Assembly: GCF_058153355.1 (NCBI RefSeq)
Contig: NZ_CM177019.1
DNA: 64,000 bases
Direction: 5' to 3' (one strand)
Shown: positions 1 through 47,064 of the stretch, one piece after another
Layout: every line of letters begins with the position of its first letter
Numbering within the stretch: position 1 is the stretch's first letter
Notes under the pieces: generated by a model
What the model was told of the DNA's origin: nothing
Databases searched by the model: none
The model's input: the letters and a program-made list of their open reading frames with translations, nothing else
Position numbers and translations under genes: made by a program

Positions 1-717
1 TTGAACATTCATCACGGTGAAATGGTGGCTCTGCTTGGGCCGTCGGGTTCCGGCAAATCCACCCTTTTACGTCATTTAAGCGGTTTGATTACCGGCGATA
101 AATCTGCCGGTAGCCATATCGAGCTGCTGGGCCGCACAGTCCAGCGCGAAGGCCGCCTGGCCCGCGATATCCGCAAAAGCCGCGCCAACACCGGCTACAT
201 CTTCCAACAATTCAACCTGGTGAATCGCCTGAGCGTACTGGAGAACGTGCTGATTGGCGCGCTCGGCAGCACGCCATTCTGGCGCACCTGTTTTAGCTGG
301 TTCACCCGCGAGCAGAAACAGCGCGCGTTACAGGCGCTGACCCGCGTTGGCATGGTGCACTTTGCCCATCAGCGCGTTTCCACCCTCTCCGGCGGGCAAC
401 AGCAGCGTGTGGCGATTGCCCGCGCGCTGATGCAGCAGGCGAAGGTGATTCTGGCCGATGAACCCATCGCCTCGCTGGACCCGGAATCGGCGCGCATCGT
501 GATGGACACCCTGCGCGACATTAACCAGAACGACGGCATTACCGTGGTCGTCACGCTGCATCAGGTGGATTACGCCCTGCGCTATTGCGAACGCATCGTC
601 GCCCTGCGTCAGGGGCACGTCTTTTACGACGGCAGCAGCCAACAGTTTGATAACGAACGTTTTGACCATCTCTACCGCAGCATTAATCGCATCGAAGAGA
701 ACGCGAAAGCTGCCTGA
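1..717 (+). CDS. phnC: Phosphonate ABC transporter ATP-binding subunit PhnC, 5'-truncated by window edge
   Basis: Frame-1 ORF open from position 1; Walker [13 protein letters not shown] signature LSGGQQQR, Walker B ILADEP; phnD follows 24 nt later. The leading M in the track is an internal TTG codon. Confidence 0.9.
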
Positions 718-6346: not shown

Positions 6347-7101
6347 ATCAACCGTTACTTTCGGTCAATAACCTGACCCACCTCTACGCGCCGGGCAAAG
6401 GCTTTAGCGATGTCTCTTTTGATTTATGGCCGGGGGAAGTGCTGGGCATCGTCGGGGAATCCGGCTCCGGGAAGACCACGCTGCTGAAATCAATCTCCGC
6501 GCGCCTGACGCCGCAGCAGGGGGAGATTCGCTATGAAAACCGCTCCCTCTATGGCATGAGCGAAGCCGACCGCCGCCGTTTGCTGCGCACCGAATGGGGC
6601 GTGGTGCATCAGCATCCGCTCGACGGCCTGCGCCGTCAGGTGTCAGCAGGCGGCAATATCGGCGAACGGCTGATGGCGACCGGGGCGCGTCATTACGGCG
6701 ACATTCGCGCCACCGCGCAGAAGTGGCTGGAAGAGGTGGAGATTCCCGCCAACCGTATCGACGATCTGCCGACCACTTTTTCCGGCGGCATGCAGCAGCG
6801 TTTGCAGATTGCCCGCAACCTGGTGACGCATCCGAAGCTGGTGTTTATGGACGAGCCAACCGGCGGGCTGGATGTGTCAGTGCAGGCACGCCTGCTCGAC
6901 CTGCTGCGCGGTCTGGTGGTGGAGCTGAACCTGGCAGTGGTGATTGTCACCCATGATCTGGGTGTCGCACGCCTGTTGGCAGACCGTTTGCTGGTGATGA
7001 AACAGGGGCAAGTGGTGGAGAGTGGCTTAACCGACCGCGTGCTCGACGACCCGCATCACCCGTATACCCAGTTGCTGGTGTCATCGGTTTTGCAGAATTG
7101 A
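6343..7101 (+). CDS. phnK: ABC-type ATPase PhnK (C-P lyase accessory)
   Basis: Trimmed to MNQPLLSVNNL… (252 aa); Walker A GESGSGKTT, signature FSGGMQQR, Walker B VFMDEP. Confidence 0.9.
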   Translation: MNQPLLSVNNLTHLYAPGKGFSDVSFDLWPGEVLGIVGESGSGKTTLLKSISARLTPQQGEIRYENRSLYGMSEADRRRLLRTEWGVVHQHPLDGLRRQVSAGGNIGERLMATGARHYGDIRATAQKWLEEVEIPANRIDDLPTTFSGGMQQRLQIARNLVTHPKLVFMDEPTGGLDVSVQARLLDLLRGLVVELNLAVVIVTHDLGVARLLADRLLVMKQGQVVESGLTDRVLDDPHHPYTQLLVSSVLQN

Positions 7102-15342: not shown

Positions 15343-17393
15343 TGAGCGCGCTCAACTCCCTGCCATTACCGGTGGTCAGGCTGCTGGCGTTCTTTCATGA
15401 AGAGTTAAGCGAGCGGCGACCAGGCCGCGTGCCGCAGACTATGCAACTCTGGGTAGGCTGCTTGCTGGTGATTCTGATCTCGATGACTTTTGAGATCCCT
15501 TTTGTGGCGTTATCACTGGCAGTGCTGTTTTACGGTATTCAGTCGAACGCGTTTTACACCAAATTTGTCGCGATCTTGTTTGTGGTCGCCACGATGCTGG
15601 AAATCGCCAGCCTGTTTTTGATCTACAAATGGTCATATGGCGAACCGTTGATCCGATTGATCATTGCCGGACCGATCCTGATGGGCTGTATGTTTTTGAT
15701 GCGCACCCATCGGTTGGGGCTGGTTTTTTTCGCCGTCGCCATTGTCGCCATTTACGGGCAAACCTTCCCCGCCATGCTCGACTATCCGGAAGTGGTCGTG
15801 CGCTTAACCCTGTGGTGTATCGTTGTCGGCCTCTACCCGACGTTATTGATGACGTTAATCGGCGTGCTGTGGTTTCCCAGCCGCGCTATCACGCAGATGC
15901 ATCAGGTGCTTAATGATCGGCTTGATGATGCCATTAGCCACCTGACGGACAGCCTCGCACCGCTACCCGAAACGCGGATTGAAAGAGAGGCGCTGGCGCT
16001 GCAAAAACTCAATGTCTTTTGCCTCGCGGACGATGCCAACTGGCGAACTCAGAGCGCATGGTGGCAAAGCTGCGTGGCAACGGTAACCTACATTTACTCG
16101 ACGCTGAATCGCTACGATCCCACCTCTTTTGCTGATTCTCAGGCAATTATTGAATTTCGGCAAAAATTAGCCTCAGAAATCAACAAACTGCAGCATGCCA
16201 TTGCCGAAGGTCAGTGCTGGCAAAGCGACTGGCGGATCACTGAAAGTGAAGCGATGGCGGCACGGGAATGTAACCTGGAGAATATCTGCCAGACATTGTT
16301 GCAACTGGGTCAGATGGACCCGAATACGCCGCCAACGCCCGCCGCCAAACCGCCATCAATGGTCGCCGATGCTTTTACCAATCCAGACTATATGCGCTAC
16401 GCGGTAAAAACGCTGCTCGCCTGTTTGATCTGTTACACCTTTTACAGCGGCGTGGACTGGGAAGGCATTCACACCTGTATGCTGACCTGCGTGATCGTCG
16501 CTAACCCCAATGTCGGTTCGTCGTACCAGAAGATGGTGTTGCGTTTTGGCGGGGCTTTTTGCGGCGCAATTCTGGCGCTGTTATTCACGTTACTGGTCAT
16601 GCCCTGGCTGGACAATATTGTCGAATTGCTATTTGTGCTGGCACCGATTTTCCTGTTGGGCGCATGGATTGCCACCAGCTCTGAACGCTCTTCTTATATC
16701 GGCACACAGATGGTGGTCACCTTCGCGCTCGCCACGCTCGAAAACGTTTTTGGCCCGGTGTACGACCTGGTGGAAATTCGCGATCGCGCCCTGGGTATCA
16801 TCATTGGTACCGTGGTGTCCGCGGTGATTTACACCTTTGTCTGGCCTGAAAGTGAAGCGCGCACACTGCCGCAAAAACTGGCTGGCGCGCTGGGTATGTT
16901 GAGTAAAGTAATGCGGATCCCACGCCAGCAGGAAGTCACGGCTCTGCGCACTTATCTGCAAATTCGTATAGGTCTGCATGCGGCGTTTAATGCCTGTGAA
17001 GAGATGTGCCAACGCGTGGCGCTGGAGCGTCAACTGGACAGCGAAGAACGCGCGTTACTGATTGAACGTTCGCAAACGGTTATTCGTCAGGGCCGCGATA
17101 TTCTTCACGCCTGGGATGCAACCTGGAACTCGGCGCAGGCGCTGGATAACGCACTACAGCCGGACAGAGCAGGCCTGTTTGCCGACGCACTGGAGAAATA
17201 CGCCGCCGGCCTGGCAAGCGCATTCAGTCGTTCTCCTCAAATAACGCTTGAAGAAACACCCGCCTCGCAGGCCATTCTGCCGACCTTATTAAAACAGGAG
17301 CAACACGTCTGCCAGCTTTTCGCCCGCTTGCCAGACTGGACAGCCCCGGCATTAACGCCCGCCACGGAACAGGCACAAGGAGCCACGCAATGA
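15342..17393 (+). CDS. mdtO: Multidrug efflux inner-membrane protein MdtO (FUSC/AaeB-like)
   Basis: 683-aa polytopic membrane ORF; start overlaps mdtN stop by 1 nt. Confidence 0.88.
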   Translation: MSALNSLPLPVVRLLAFFHEELSERRPGRVPQTMQLWVGCLLVILISMTFEIPFVALSLAVLFYGIQSNAFYTKFVAILFVVATMLEIASLFLIYKWSYGEPLIRLIIAGPILMGCMFLMRTHRLGLVFFAVAIVAIYGQTFPAMLDYPEVVVRLTLWCIVVGLYPTLLMTLIGVLWFPSRAITQMHQVLNDRLDDAISHLTDSLAPLPETRIEREALALQKLNVFCLADDANWRTQSAWWQSCVATVTYIYSTLNRYDPTSFADSQAIIEFRQKLASEINKLQHAIAEGQCWQSDWRITESEAMAARECNLENICQTLLQLGQMDPNTPPTPAAKPPSMVADAFTNPDYMRYAVKTLLACLICYTFYSGVDWEGIHTCMLTCVIVANPNVGSSYQKMVLRFGGAFCGAILALLFTLLVMPWLDNIVELLFVLAPIFLLGAWIATSSERSSYIGTQMVVTFALATLENVFGPVYDLVEIRDRALGIIIGTVVSAVIYTFVWPESEARTLPQKLAGALGMLSKVMRIPRQQEVTALRTYLQIRIGLHAAFNACEEMCQRVALERQLDSEERALLIERSQTVIRQGRDILHAWDATWNSAQALDNALQPDRAGLFADALEKYAAGLASAFSRSPQITLEETPASQAILPTLLKQEQHVCQLFARLPDWTAPALTPATEQAQGATQ

Positions 17394-18856
17394 TCAATCG
17401 TCAACTTTCACGCCTGCTGTTGTGCAGCATTCTCGGCAGCACGACGCTGATTTCGGGCTGTGCCCTGGTACGTAAGGATTCTGCCCCGCATCAACAGCTC
17501 AAACCGGAACAAATCAAACTGGCCGATGATATTCATCTTGCCAGCTCCGGTTGGCCGCAGGCGCAGTGGTGGAAACAACTCAATGACCCGCAGTTGGATG
17601 CTTTGATCCAACGGACGCTAAGTGGTTCACACACCCTCGCCGAAGCGAAACTGCGGGAAGAAAAAGCGCAGTCGCAGGCCGATTTGTTAGATGCCGGTTC
17701 ACAATTACAGGTCGCAGCGTTAGGGATGCTCAACCGCCAACGTGTCTCGGCGAACGGCTTTTTAAGCCCTTATGCTATGGATGCGCCAGCACTGGGTATG
17801 GACGGGCCGTACTATACGGAAGCCACAGTCGGTTTGTTTGCCGGACTGGATCTTGATTTGTGGGGTGTGCATCGCTCAGCGGTTGCCGCCGCCATTGGCG
17901 CGCATAATGCAGCGCTGGCAGAAACCGCAGCAGTAGAGCTATCGCTGACCACGGGCGTAGCGCAGCTTTATTACAGTATGCAGGCCAGCTATCAGATGCT
18001 CGATCTGTTAGAACAAACACGCGATGTTATTGATTACGCGGTGAAAGCGCATCAGAGTAAAGTGGCGCACGGTCTGGAAGCGCAAGTGCCTTTCCACGGC
18101 GCGCGGGCACAGATTCTGGCGGTCGATAAACAAATTGCTACCGTTAAAGGGCAAATCACCGAAACGCGAGAATCTCTGCGCGCATTAATGGGTGCTGGAG
18201 CCAGCGATATGCCGGAGATCAAACCGGTGGCATTACCGCAAGTCCAGACCGGTATTCCGGCGACACTCTCTTATGAGTTGCTCGCCAGACGCCCGGATCT
18301 GCAAGCCATGCGCTGGTATGTTCAGGCGTCATTAGATCAGGTGGATTCCGCGCGGGCGCTGTTCTATCCGAGCTTTGATATCAAAGCGTTTTTCGGCCTG
18401 GATTCTATCCACCTGGATACCTTATTCAAAAAAACCAGTCGCCAGTTCAACTTCATTCCTGGTCTGAAATTGCCGCTGTTTGACGGTGGACGGTTGAATG
18501 CCAATCTCGAAGGCACGCGCGCCGCCAGCAACATGATGATTGAACGTTACAACCAGTCAGTGCTGAATGCGGTGCGCGACGTTGCCGTCAACGGCACGCG
18601 TCTGCAAACGCTCAACGACGAGCGAGAGATGCAGGCTGAACGCGTGGAAGCAACGCGCTTCACCCAGCGCGCTGCCGACGCCGCCTACCAACGAGGCTTA
18701 ACCAGTCGCTTACAGGCCACCGAAGCCCAGTTGCCGGTGCTTGCCGAAGAGATGTCATTACTGATGCTGGACAGCCGCCGGGTGATCCAAAGCATTCAGT
18801 TGATGAAATCGCTGGGTGGCGGGTATCAGGCAGGTCCGGTCGTCGAGAAAAAATAA
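17390..18856 (+). CDS. mdtP: Outer-membrane efflux lipoprotein MdtP (OMF/TolC-like)
   Basis: 488-aa ORF with lipoprotein signal (LISGCA); overlaps mdtO by 4 nt. Confidence 0.88.
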   Translation: MINRQLSRLLLCSILGSTTLISGCALVRKDSAPHQQLKPEQIKLADDIHLASSGWPQAQWWKQLNDPQLDALIQRTLSGSHTLAEAKLREEKAQSQADLLDAGSQLQVAALGMLNRQRVSANGFLSPYAMDAPALGMDGPYYTEATVGLFAGLDLDLWGVHRSAVAAAIGAHNAALAETAAVELSLTTGVAQLYYSMQASYQMLDLLEQTRDVIDYAVKAHQSKVAHGLEAQVPFHGARAQILAVDKQIATVKGQITETRESLRALMGAGASDMPEIKPVALPQVQTGIPATLSYELLARRPDLQAMRWYVQASLDQVDSARALFYPSFDIKAFFGLDSIHLDTLFKKTSRQFNFIPGLKLPLFDGGRLNANLEGTRAASNMMIERYNQSVLNAVRDVAVNGTRLQTLNDEREMQAERVEATRFTQRAADAAYQRGLTSRLQATEAQLPVLAEEMSLLMLDSRRVIQSIQLMKSLGGGYQAGPVVEKK

Positions 18857-18864
18857 AATGTCAG

Positions 18865-18898
18865 CCGCGTGATGGCTGTCACGCGGTATTTCGTTTCG
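18865..18898 (+). terminator. Hairpin downstream of mdtP (CCGCGTGA-TGGCTG-TCACGCGG) followed by T-rich tract
   Basis: Perfect 8-bp inverted repeat 9 nt after the mdtP stop, then TATTTCGTTTCG. Confidence 0.45.
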
Positions 18899-18986
18899 TC
18901 ACGTCAAAACTGACGACAGCCTGTTTTTCGTCAGAGTTTTGAATAAATAGTGCCCGTAATATCAGGGAATGACCCCAAATAAAATG

Positions 18987-19002
18987 TGGCATAAAAGATG
19001 CA
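18987..19002 (+). promoter_or_regulatory. Sigma-54 (-24/-12) promoter of fdhF
   Basis: TGGCATAAAAGATGCA matches the GG-N10-GC sigma-54 consensus about 50 nt upstream of the fdhF ATG; fdhF is a classic sigma-54/FhlA-dependent gene. Confidence 0.6.
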
Positions 19003-19053
19003 TACTGTAGTCGAGAGCGCGTATGCGTGATTTGATTAACTGGAGCGAGACCG

Positions 19054-21201
19054 ATGAAAAAAGTCGTCACGGTTTGCCCCTATTGCGCATCAGGTTGCAA
19101 AATCAACCTGGTCGTCGATAACGGCAAAATCGTCCGGGCGGAGGCAGCGCAGGGCAAAACCAACCAGGGTACCCTGTGTCTGAAGGGGTATTATGGCTGG
19201 GATTTCATTAACGATACCCAGATCCTGACCCCGCGCCTGAAAACCCCCATGATTCGTCGCCAGCGTGGCGGCAAACTCGAACCTGTTTCCTGGGATGAGG
19301 CACTGAATTACGTTGCCGAGCGCCTGAGCGCCATCAAAGAGAAGTACGGTCCGGATGCCATCCAGACGACCGGCTCCTCGCGTGGTACGGGTAACGAAAC
19401 CAACTATGTAATGCAAAAATTTGCGCGCGCCGTTATTGGTACCAATAACGTTGACTGCTGCGCTCGCGTCTGACACGGCCCATCGGTTGCAGGTCTGCAC
19501 CAATCGGTCGGTAATGGCGCAATGAGCAATGCTATTAACGAAATTGATAATACCGATTTAGTGTTCGTTTTCGGGTACAACCCGGCGGATTCCCACCCTA
19601 TCGTGGCGAATCACGTAATTAACGCTAAACGTAACGGGGCGAAAATTATCGTCTGCGATCCGCGCAAAATTGAAACCGCGCGCATTGCTGACATGCACAT
19701 TGCACTGAAAAACGGCTCGAATATCGCGCTGTTGAATGCGATGGGCCATGTCATTATTGAAGAAAATCTGTACGACAAAGCGTTCGTCGCTTCCCGTACA
19801 GAAGGCTTTGAAGAGTATCGTAAAATCGTTGAAGGCTACACGCCGGAGTCGGTTGAAGATATCACCGGCGTCAGCGCCAGTGAGATTCGTCAGGCGGCGC
19901 GGATGTATGCCCAGGCGAAAAGCGCCGCCATCCTGTGGGGCATGGGTGTAACCCAGTTCTACCAGGGCGTGGAAACCGTGCGTTCTCTGACCAGCCTCGC
20001 GATGCTGACTGGTAACCTCGGTAAGCCGCATGCGGGTGTAAACCCGGTTCGTGGTCAAAACAACGTGCAGGGGGCCTGCGATATGGGCGCACTGCCAGAT
20101 ACTTACCCTGGCTACCAGTATGTGAAAGATCCGGCTAACCGCGAGAAATTCGCCAAAGCCTGGGGTGTAGAGAGTCTGCCTGCTCATACCGGTTATCGCA
20201 TCAGCGAGCTGCCGCACCGCGCAGCGCATGGTGAAGTGCGTGCCGCGTACATTATGGGCGAAGATCCGCTACAAACTGACGCGGAGCTGTCGGCAGTACG
20301 TAAAGCCTTTGAAGATCTGGAACTGGTCATCGTTCAGGACATCTTTATGACCAAAACCGCGTCGGCGGCGGATGTCATTTTACCGTCAACGTCGTGGGGC
20401 GAGCATGAAGGCGTGTTTACTGCGGCTGACCGTGGCTTCCAGCGTTTCTTCAAAGCAGTTGAACCGAAATGGGATCTGAAAACGGACTGGCAGATTATCA
20501 GTGAAATCGCCACCCGTATGGGTTATCCGATGCACTACAACAACACCCAGGAGATCTGGGATGAGTTGCGTCATCTGTGCCCGGATTTCTACGGTGCGAC
20601 TTACGAGAAAATGGGCGAACTGGGCTTCATTCAGTGGCCTTGTCGCGATACTTCAGATGCCGATCAGGGGACTTCTTATCTGTTTAAAGAGAAGTTTGAT
20701 ACTCCGAACGGTCTGGCGCAGTTCTTCACCTGCGACTGGGTAGCGCCAATCGACAAACTCACCGACGAGTATCCGATGGTACTGTCAACGGTGCGTGAAG
20801 TCGGTCACTACTCTTGCCGTTCGATGACCGGTAACTGTGCGGCACTGGCGGCGCTGGCTGATGAACCTGGCTACGCACAAATCAATACCGAAGACGCCAA
20901 ACGTCTGGGTATTGAAGATGAGGCATTGGTTTGGGTGCACTCGCGTAAAGGCAAAATTATCACCCGTGCGCAGGTCAGCGATCGTCCGAACAAAGGGGCG
21001 ATTTACATGACCTACCAGTGGTGGATTGGTGCCTGTAACGAGCTGGTTACCGAAAACTTAAGCCCGATTACGAAAACGCCGGAATACAAATACTGCGCCG
21101 TGCGCGTCGAGCCGATCGCCGATCAGCGCGCCGCCGAGCAGTACGTGATTGACGAGTACAACAAGTTGAAAACTCGCCTGCGCGAAGCGGCATTGGCGTA
21201 A
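19054..21201 (+). CDS. fdhF: Formate dehydrogenase H (selenocysteine-containing, molybdopterin) FdhF; in-frame UGA at 19471-19473 decoded as Sec
   Basis: Track ORFs 19054-19473 and 19522-21201 are in the same frame, separated only by a TGA; merged length is 715 aa; N-terminal Cys cluster CPYCASGC; the UGA sits in CCARV-U-HGPS and is followed by a hairpin. Confidence 0.92.
19474..19515 (+). promoter_or_regulatory. SECIS stem-loop directing selenocysteine insertion at the fdhF UGA
   Basis: Sequence immediately 3' of the TGA (CACGGCCCATCGGTTGCAGGTCTGCACCAATCGGTCGG…) can fold into the stem-loop expected for a bacterial SECIS. Confidence 0.7.
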
Positions 21202-44241: not shown

Positions 44242-47064
44242 ATGGATAAGATCGAAGTTCGGGGCGCCCGCACCCATAATCTCAAAAACATCAACCTCGT
44301 TATCCCCCGCGACAAGCTCATTGTCGTGACCGGGCTTTCGGGTTCTGGCAAATCCTCGCTCGCTTTCGACACCTTATATGCCGAAGGGCAGCGCCGTTAC
44401 GTTGAATCCCTTTCCGCCTACGCGCGGCAGTTTCTGTCACTGATGGAAAAGCCGGACGTCGATCATATTGAGGGGCTTTCTCCTGCCATCTCGATTGAGC
44501 AGAAATCGACGTCTCATAACCCGCGTTCTACGGTGGGGACAATCACCGAAATCCACGACTATTTGCGTTTGTTGTTCGCCCGCGTCGGTGAGCCGCGCTG
44601 CCCGGACCACGATGTACCGCTGGCGGCGCAAACCGTCAGCCAGATGGTGGATAACGTGCTGTCGCAGCCGGAAGGTAAACGCCTGATGCTGCTCGCGCCA
44701 ATCATTAAAGAGCGCAAAGGCGAACACACCAAAACGCTGGAAAATCTGGCAAGCCAGGGTTACATCCGTGCTCGTATTGATGGCGAAGTCTGCGATCTTT
44801 CCGATCCGCCGAAACTGGAATTGCAAAAGAAACACACCATTGAAGTGGTGGTTGATCGCTTCAAGGTGCGTGACGATCTTACCCAACGTCTTGCCGAGTC
44901 GTTTGAAACCGCGCTGGAGCTTTCCGGTGGTACAGCGGTGGTTGCTGATATGGACGATCCAAAAGCGGAAGAGCTGCTTTTCTCAGCGAACTTCGCTTGT
45001 CCAATTTGCGGCTACAGTATGCGTGAACTGGAGCCGCGACTGTTTTCGTTTAACAACCCGGCGGGGGCCTGCCCGACCTGTGACGGCCTTGGCGTACAGC
45101 AATATTTCGATCCTGATCGCGTGATCCAAAACCCGGAACTGTCGCTGGCTGGCGGTGCGATCCGAGGCTGGGATCGCCGCAACTTCTATTATTTCCAGAT
45201 GCTGAAATCGCTGGCAGATCACTATAAGTTCGACGTCGAAGCGCCGTGGGGCAGCCTGAGCGCGAACGTGCATAAAGTGGTGCTGTACGGTTCAGGCAAA
45301 GAAAACATTGAATTCAAATACATGAACGATCGCGGCGATACCTCCATTCGTCGTCATCCGTTCGAAGGCGTGCTGCACAATATGGAGCGCCGTTATAAAG
45401 AGACGGAATCCAGTGCGGTACGCGAAGAATTAGCCAAGTTTATCAGCAATCGCCCGTGCGCCAGCTGCGAAGGAACGCGTCTGCGTCGGGAAGCGCGCCA
45501 TGTGTATGTCGAGAATACGCCGCTGCCTGCTATCTCCGACATGAGCATCGGTCATGCGATGGAATTCTTCAACAATCTCAAACTCGCAGGTCAACGAGCG
45601 AAGATTGCGGAAAAAATTCTTAAGGAGATTGGCGATCGCCTGAAATTCCTCGTTAACGTCGGCCTGAATTACCTGACACTTTCCCGCTCGGCAGAAACGC
45701 TTTCTGGCGGTGAAGCCCAGCGTATCCGTCTGGCGAGCCAGATTGGTGCGGGCCTGGTTGGCGTGATGTACGTGCTGGATGAGCCGTCTATCGGCCTGCA
45801 CCAGCGCGATAACGAGCGTCTGTTGGGTACGCTTATCCATCTGCGCGATCTTGGTAATACCGTGATTGTGGTGGAGCACGACGAAGACGCGATTCGTGCG
45901 GCTGACCATGTGATCGACATCGGTCCTGGTGCGGGTGTACATGGCGGTGAAGTGGTCGCGGAAGGTCCCCTGGAAGCGATTATGGCGGTGCCTGAGTCGT
46001 TAACCGGGCAGTACATGAGCGGCAAACGCAAGATTGAAGTGCCAAAGAAACGCGTTCCGGCGAATCCGGAAAAAGTGCTGAAGCTGACCGGCGCACGTGG
46101 CAACAACCTCAAAGACGTGACGCTGACGCTGCCGGTGGGTCTGTTTACCTGCATCACAGGGGTTTCAGGTTCCGGTAAATCGACGCTGATTAACGACACA
46201 CTGTTCCCGATTGCCCAACGCCAGTTGAATGGTGCGACCATCGCCGAACCGGCACCTTATCGCGATATTCAGGGGCTGGAGCATTTCGATAAAGTGATCG
46301 ATATCGACCAAAGCCCAATTGGTCGTACTCCGCGTTCTAACCCGGCGACCTATACCGGCGTGTTTACGCCTGTGCGCGAACTGTTTGCGGGCGTACCGGA
46401 ATCCCGTGCGCGCGGTTATACACCAGGACGATTCAGCTTTAACGTTCGCGGCGGACGCTGCGAAGCCTGTCAGGGCGATGGCGTGATCAAAGTGGAGATG
46501 CACTTCCTGCCGGACATTTACGTACCGTGCGACCAGTGCAAAGGTAAACGCTATAACCGTGAAACGCTGGAGATTAAGTACAAAGGCAAAACCATCCACG
46601 AAGTGCTGGATATGACCATCGAAGAGGCGCGTGAGTTCTTTGATGCGGTACCAGCTCTGGCACGTAAGCTGCAAACATTGATGGACGTTGGCCTGACGTA
46701 CATTCGCCTGGGGCAGTCCGCAACCACACTTTCTGGTGGTGAAGCCCAGCGCGTGAAGCTGGCGCGTGAGCTGTCAAAACGCGGCACCGGGCAGACACTG
46801 TATATTCTCGACGAGCCGACCACCGGTCTGCACTTCGCCGATATTCAGCAACTGCTCGACGTATTGCATAAACTGCGCGATCAGGGCAATACCATCGTGG
46901 TGATTGAGCACAATCTCGACGTGATCAAAACCGCTGACTGGATTGTCGACCTGGGGCCGGAAGGCGGCAGTGGCGGCGGCGAGATCCTCGTCTCCGGTAC
47001 ACCAGAAACCGTCGCGGAGTGCGAAGCTTCGCATACGGCGCGCTTCCTCAAGCCGATGCTGTAA
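44242..47064 (+). CDS. uvrA: Excinuclease ABC subunit UvrA
   Basis: 940-aa ORF with two ABC ATPase modules (GLSGSGKSS and GVSGSGKST Walker A; two LSGGEAQR signatures) and zinc-finger Cys clusters. Confidence 0.97.

Follow-up and report, generated by a model that had tools for sequence, protein, structure and literature searches.

A comparative footprint of the mdtP-fdhF intergenic region, very probably the classical fdhF control region

Between mdtP and fdhF, two genes on the plus strand, lies an intergenic region of 197 bp (18857-19053) with a GG-N10-GC element and inverted repeats upstream of it. This raises the question whether these elements form the control region of fdhF, and which of the repeats serve the activation of fdhF and which the end of mdtP. 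All positions are those of the window, by which we mean the whole 64-kb stretch of DNA that was analysed. With high confidence, we identify the interval as the classical fdhF control region, made up of the mdtP terminator, the FhlA enhancer and the sigma-54 promoter. It is a real feature, though an ordinary one that was known before. Since the late 1980s, the fdhF promoter and the enhancer that responds to formate have served as a model for sigma-54 systems that depend on an enhancer, and the promoter and upstream activating sequence of E. coli K-12 fdhF were reportedly mapped by Birkmann and Bock in 1989.

The locus and its sigma-54 promoter

The genes and the promoter elements are positioned as follows.

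17390-18856, plus strand: mdtP coding sequence (ORF list, BLAST annotation and K-12 annotation)
18854-18856, plus strand: mdtP stop codon TAA (ORF list)
18987-19002, plus strand: sigma-54 (RpoN) -24/-12 promoter TGGCATAAAAGATGCA, with GG at 18988-89 and GC at 19000-01, identical to K-12 and conserved
19013, plus strand: predicted transcription start (G), from the rule of motif centre + 19 and the tabulated 41 bp to fdhF (PMC4591121)
19042-19045, plus strand: Shine-Dalgarno sequence GGAG, 8 nt 5' of the fdhF ATG, read from the sequence
19054-21201, plus strand: fdhF (formate dehydrogenase H) coding sequence, from the in-frame ORFs 19054-19473 and 19522-21201 and BLAST annotation

The gene identities given in the initial annotation, mdtP and fdhF, hold according to both the BLAST and the K-12 annotation. 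A 601-bp query spanning the gap has matches in 5,419 of 5,426 complete E. coli genomes, and the BLAST matches are annotated as mdtP and fdhF every time. The fdhF reading frame contains an in-frame TGA at 19471-19473 (plus strand), read from the sequence as selenocysteine in the context V-U-H-G, and a SECIS element at 19466-19520 (plus strand; Rfam SECIS_2, 87.9 bits against a gathering score of 70). This SECIS element was the sole match in an Rfam scan of 18500-19700 with E <= 1, in which the intergenic region had no match to an RNA family. The minus strand carries an ORF of 63 amino acids over the promoter and the enhancer (18879-19070), which we treated as spurious, as the conservation lies in discrete motifs and does not follow a coding pattern.

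Aligned to K-12 MG1655, the intergenic region differs at two bases, with A for T at 18863 in the flank of the terminator stem and A for C at 18978 just 5' of the -24 element. Both substitutions lie outside the hexamers described below and outside the GG and GC doublets. The K-12 fdhF promoter and upstream activating sequence thus have the same locus, the same flanking genes and the same sigma-54 element, and because the intergenic regions are nearly identical, published facts on the K-12 fdhF control region apply directly here. The window itself is not K-12: over the 601 bp from 18700 to 19300, identity of at least 99% is reached in only 2 of 5,420 E. coli records, while most show 95-99%. Since the control region is nearly invariant, most of the divergence in 18700-19300 sits in the flanking coding sequence.

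The element TGGCATAAAAGATGCA reads TGGCAT-AAAAG-ATGCA, with exactly 10 nt between its GG and GC doublets, and its end is separated by 51 nt from the fdhF ATG (19054) on the same strand. The initial annotation had placed this GG-N10-GC element at 18987-19002, about 50 nt before the ATG, and these coordinates are exact. As a sequence pattern alone, the promoter is within chance expectation. The pattern TGGCAYN6TGCW has two matches in the window where 1.05 are expected, and 31 of 100 shuffled sequences reach two. With the published RpoN position-weight matrix (like the FhlA matrix used below, from PMC7658346, Table 2), TGGCATAAAAGATGCA scores 13.6 of 21.3 bits and ranks only sixth in the window.

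We therefore accept the promoter as real on other grounds: where it lies, how well it is conserved and what has been published on its occupancy. For conservation, we retrieved 80 species-level genomes with the N-terminus of FdhF, and column conservation was computed over 81 sequences. The strict pattern TGGCAY-N6-TGCW is kept in 75 of the 80 other enterobacterial species, 51-84 nt 5' of the fdhF ATG, and the element has a column identity of at least 0.9 in the 81 sequences. The columns 19033-19053, directly before the ATG, are highly conserved in the same alignment.

Sigma-54 occupancy is known from the literature. The 17-mer GTGGCATAAAAGATGCA, which is identical here, was detected by ChIP-seq in E. 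coli K-12 as the sigma-54 site OS41. The study assigns it to fdhF and marks the promoter as having experimental confirmation in EcoCyc (PMC4591121), so that the sigma-54 reading of the initial annotation agrees with the mapped promoter. In vitro, sigma-54 holoenzyme binds the mdtP-fdhF spacer in gSELEX (PMC8743547). The orthologous element of Salmonella Typhimurium fdhF (STM4285), TGGCATAAAACATGCATA, differs from the window by one substitution in the promoter spacer; ChIP-chip shows sigma-54 holoenzyme bound to it, and fdhF expression there, followed by microarray, depends on sigma-54, with FhlA as the activator (PMC3844500). A scan of 18600-19300 for sigma-70-like promoters gave no hits. The predicted leader of fdhF is 41 nt long, and a start at 19013 is equivalent to placing the C of the GC element at -12.

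There are five sites in the window that outscore the fdhF promoter with the RpoN matrix, at 59283-59298 (minus strand), 172-187 (minus), 17299-17314 (minus), 6977-6992 (plus) and 46658-46673 (plus), one of them inside mdtO. These may be chance matches, or they may belong to the class of sigma-54 sites inside genes that Bonocora et al. described. Another sigma-54-like site, TGGCATGATTCTTGTA at 54538-54553 (minus strand; 13.45 bits with the RpoN matrix), is the known pspG sigma-54 promoter, which corresponds to the ChIP-seq site OS40, TTGGCATGATTCTTGTA (PMC4591121).

The hairpin behind mdtP

Immediately downstream of mdtP there are two overlapping features.

18864-18897, plus strand: intrinsic terminator of mdtP, with a stem from 18864/5 to 18886/7, arms CCGCGTGA...TCACGCGG, and then an interrupted T tract, ATTTCGTTTC
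18877-18883, plus strand: conserved TGTCACG in the 3' arm of the hairpin, at -136 to -130, a candidate distal enhancer half-site

A hairpin just after mdtP, at 18865-18886, had been noted initially, together with the caveat that it is perhaps the mdtP terminator, and both the hairpin and the caveat are confirmed. Its arms occupy 18865-72 and 18879-86, the first of them beginning 9 nt behind the mdtP stop, and the stem has 8-10 bp with six G-C pairs. The RNA fold has a free energy of -18.8 kcal/mol (z = -3.7), and none of 200 shuffled sequences is as stable. The tract that follows, ATTTCGTTTC, reaches the scan threshold of 5 T in 8 bases, and the scan calls the hairpin terminator-like; the tract is interrupted, so that the termination of mdtP may be partial.

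Species were grouped by whether the gene that ends immediately before this position is a homologue of mdtP, and a hairpin in this position counted as stable when it folded with -15 kcal/mol or lower. All 11 species with such a homologue have a stable hairpin, compared to only 1 of the 61 others (Fisher p = 4e-12). From this co-occurrence with mdtP, we identify the hairpin at 18865-18886 as the mdtP terminator.

The alternative, that the hairpin is a binding palindrome for FhlA or another dimeric activator and not a terminator, has some features on its side. Its 8-bp arms match perfectly, it lies 127-148 nt before the predicted start, the conserved GTCAC falls in its right arm, and it can be read as a CRP-like cGTGA-N6-TCACg site (18868-18883) with two mismatches. 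However, the left arm is not conserved across genera, with column identities of 0.1-0.5, and the stem sits right behind the mdtP stop codon with a T-rich tract after it and follows the presence of mdtP as described above. Furthermore, the window contains 54 equally good CRP-like matches, and the CRP-like reading is probably a by-product of the stem. We therefore consider an activator palindrome in place of the terminator to be very unlikely.

The enhancer and its putative half-sites

Between the terminator and the promoter, the following elements were detected.

18894-18916, plus strand: putative enhancer (UAS) core TTTCGTCACGTCAAAACTGACGA, at -119 to -97, from its conservation and its shared motif
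18896-18916, plus strand: outer repeat TCGTCA-N9-TGACGA, with arms at 18896-901 and 18911-16
18902-18915, plus strand: inner palindrome CGTCA-AAAC-TGACG, the best local match to the FhlA matrix, with a motif shared across the regulon
18926-18942, plus strand: putative proximal enhancer element TTTCGTCAG-AGTTTTGA, containing TCGTCA at 18928-33 in fixed spacing across species
18954-18976, plus strand: conserved spacer block between enhancer and promoter, CCGTAATATCAGG...CCCnCAA, with identities of 0.6-0.9 across 81 species

Per-column identity over the 81 sequences peaks at 18877-82, 18894-18916, 18920-42 and 18987-19003. The core, 18894-18916, is the best-conserved upstream block, with a column identity of at least 0.9 in 81 species except for the W position and the 4-nt spacer, and the enhancer block is also conserved in genera where the upstream gene is not mdtP. 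For counting half-sites by position, 73 sequences were anchored on ACGTCA-N4-TGWCGA. In all 73 species TCGWCA is found exactly at 18896, and TCGTCA at 18928-33 is exact and in fixed spacing in 70 of them. This proximal TCGTCA (-85 to -80) forms TGACGA-N11-TCGTCA with the core and has a weak partner, TGAATA, at 18940. It is a third hexamer that the initial annotation had overlooked. The octamer TTTCGTCA is present twice, at 18894-901 and 18926-33, 32 bp apart, out of six copies in the whole window.

Across the 64 kb, this is the only place with three TCGWCA/TGWCGA hexamers within 45 bp, and 14 of 200 shuffled sequences have any such cluster; the hexamer cluster is thus exceptional compared to chance. 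The 14-bp palindrome YGWCA-N4-TGWCR likewise has a single occurrence in the 64-kb window. The initial annotation had described the repeat TCGTCA...TGACGA at about 18897-18918, which is present with coordinates 1-2 nt off (18896-18916). The inner palindrome combines the right arm of that repeat with a left arm 5-6 nt further in, and from the alignment we read the outer left arm as an additional, equally conserved tandem half-site.

The core lies 97-119 nt before the predicted start at 19013, the proximal hexamer at -85 to -80 and the GTCAC of the hairpin at -135 to -131. Measured from the start of the -24 element, the hairpin is 101-122 nt upstream and the second repeat 71-91 nt, so that the 90-125 nt given initially is a loose figure and slightly too large. 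Activator sites are typically found 70-150 bp upstream of sigma-54 promoters (PMC3844500). As -119 to -97 and -85 to -80 are within this range, the distance fits an FhlA enhancer. The position is also consistent with the mapped fdhF UAS, which we take to be centred near -110.

As an independent test, we applied the hexamer rule to formate-regulon DNA of K-12 (L002 and L003). In the 20 kb of the hyc/hyp/hydN region, two gaps alone hold triple hexamer clusters, hycA-hypA (17546-75) and hycA-hycB (16879-924), and there is a hexamer pair upstream of hydN. The palindrome YGWCA-N4-TGWCR is found in K-12 upstream of hydN (CGTCACTAGTGTCG), in the hycA-hycB gap (TGTCATTTTTGACG) and upstream of hyfA (CGACACGGGTGTCG). 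From this recurrence we identify the palindrome shared across the regulon as the inner CGTCA-AAAC-TGACG (18902-15). In K-12, TCGWCA/TGWCGA clusters like the one at fdhF are present in all the FhlA-dependent enhancers, those of hyc, hyp, hydN-hypF and hyf, and at hyc and hydN the sequences place them at a distance similar to fdhF, about 55-90 bp before a GG-N10-GC element. The number, order and orientation of the hexamers vary, from > > < > at fdhF to < > > at hycA-hypA, and at hycA-hypA a 13-bp variant, TGTCATTTCGACA, takes the place of the 14-bp palindrome. S. enterica subsp. arizonae has the same enhancer core; in Salmonella the first hexamer is TCGACA in place of TCGTCA, and the mdtP terminator hairpin has a different sequence. 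Being the most conserved upstream block, with a motif shared with other FhlA-dependent control regions, the core bears out the FhlA-type upstream activator site that had been suggested initially.

The published descriptions of FhlA binding fit the region only in part. With the FhlA matrix (PMC7658346), the best local site is CGTCAAAACTGACG at 18902-15, a weak match with 8.1 of 17.5 bits and rank 132 in the window, and we conclude that this matrix is too weak to discriminate. The 16-bp FhlA consensus CATTTCGTACGAAATG comes from Leonhartsberger et al. 2000 as quoted in PMC4987338. The whole of this consensus has no match in 18857-19053 with up to six mismatches. Only half-sites of it are present, namely TATTTCGT at 18887-94, CGTTTCGT at 18892-99 and the two copies of TTTCGTCA given above, and the K-12 hyc/hyp sites likewise carry only half-sites of the ATTTCGWC type. 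The quoted consensus is an idealised palindrome. From their overlap in sequence, TCGWCA and the quoted half-site CATTTCGT appear to be overlapping descriptions of one half-site, (C/T)ATTTCGWCA.

Could the repeats at 18896-18934 be sites of NarL/NarP, ModE, FNR or IHF instead of FhlA? The expression of fdhF does respond to nitrate, oxygen and molybdate (PMC7759655; PMC3149613). However, the effects of oxygen and nitrate are explained by a lowered intracellular formate level (PMC11841067), the interval has no NarL heptamer, FNR box or ModE-like half-site, and the other places where the hexamer motif turns up are specifically control regions that depend on FhlA. We regard this explanation as extremely improbable. 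Motif scans of 18857-19053 for CRP, FNR, NarL, ModE and IHF returned only the CRP-like reading of the hairpin and an IHF-like site with one mismatch, TATCAGGGAATGA at 18960-72, inside the conserved spacer block, where 0.41 such matches are expected by chance in 197 bp. Neither match is above background density, and both were rejected as explanations.

How far the FhlA enhancer extends upstream is a question of the GTCAC at 18878-82. GTCAY is found at this offset in 62 of 73 species, with column identities of 0.7-0.8, and GTCACG is repeated 20 bp downstream, at 18898 inside the core. The 3' arm of the terminator might have a dual use, closing the mdtP stem as RNA and providing GTCAC as a distal half-site of the fdhF enhancer as DNA. 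Consistent with this, GTCAY stands 21-24 nt 5' of the core in 52 of 61 species without mdtP and the hairpin and in 11 of 11 with both, the 20 bp between the two GTCACG copies are equal to two helical turns, and in many species of the Enterobacter type there is one more partner, GTGAC/TGACGA, further upstream. On the other hand, GTCAC is short, its conservation could reflect another constraint, and it is absent in about 11 of the 73 species. We consider such a dual use to be a plausible suggestion that is still somewhat doubtful. Taking the hexamers and GTCAC together, the fdhF enhancer could be an array of four to six half-sites of the (TT)TCGWCA type from about -136 to -70, including the hexamer at 18928-33 and the distal GTCAC in the 3' arm of the mdtP terminator; we put this array forward tentatively and with more doubt than conviction. 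If true, the same DNA would be both a terminator stem for mdtP and an activator half-site for fdhF.

An additional conserved GTGAC(G)...N13-15...GTCAC pair is found about 40-65 nt 5' of the core in the loci L040, L047, L058 and L064 and in other Enterobacter, Lelliottia and Kosakonia loci, none of which has mdtP upstream. Judged by its sequence, this pair may represent additional activator half-sites that are replaced in Escherichia by the left arm of the mdtP terminator.

Proposed mechanism and further observations

FhlA is an AAA+ activator of the NtrC family whose N-terminal domain binds formate, and it binds upstream of fdhF and hyc (PMC11291172; PMC11841067). The FhlA and formate dependence of fdhF is thus taken from the literature, whereas we infer which hexamers FhlA touches and that the GTCAC of the terminator 3' arm may be part of the site. 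In the proposed sequence of events, mdtP transcription would end at the hairpin 18864-18887. Sigma-54 RNA polymerase would bind TGGCAT-N5-ATGCA (18987-19002) in a closed complex that it is unable to open by itself. FhlA would bind the half-site cluster about 80-120 nt, possibly up to 136 nt, 5' of the start, using TCGTCA at 18896, CGTCA at 18902, TGACGA at 18911, TCGTCA at 18928 and probably GTCAC at 18878. Formate-bound FhlA would then contact the closed complex by DNA looping and open it with ATP hydrolysis, with transcription starting near 19013, and oxygen and nitrate would act indirectly by draining formate.

This arrangement is comparable to that of generic sigma-54 promoters such as glnAp2 with NtrC and norV with NorR, where a closed complex at -24/-12 is combined with several activator sites about 70-150 bp upstream and with looping, as at fdhF (PMC3844500; PMC4987338). 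In contrast to the generic case, the activator of fdhF is gated by a ligand, formate, and is not phosphorylated, and its half-site sequence is specific to FhlA.

Beyond a correct annotation, the finding has little importance, and the fdhF promoter (PfdhF) is already in use as a formate biosensor part. The modest added value lies in the comparative footprint of 80 species, which gives the conserved half-sites at single-base resolution, ties the hairpin to mdtP and not to the regulation of fdhF, and flags the conserved block at 18954-18976.

Four genomes were inspected upstream of fdhF, at locus positions of about 1300-1500, in which the -24/-12 element is not intact: Phytobacter massiliensis (L057), Entomohabitans (L076), Leclercia sp. 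29361 (L080) and Enterobacter sp. BIGb0383 (L083). Their enhancer hexamers are decayed too, which suggests from the sequences that the promoter and the enhancer of fdhF were lost together in these four.

An extra copy of the 14-bp palindrome, CGTCAATGATGTCA, is located inside ascG of K-12 (L002, 5851-5864), about 600-750 bp upstream of hydN, and is the only copy found outside a known control region of the formate regulon.
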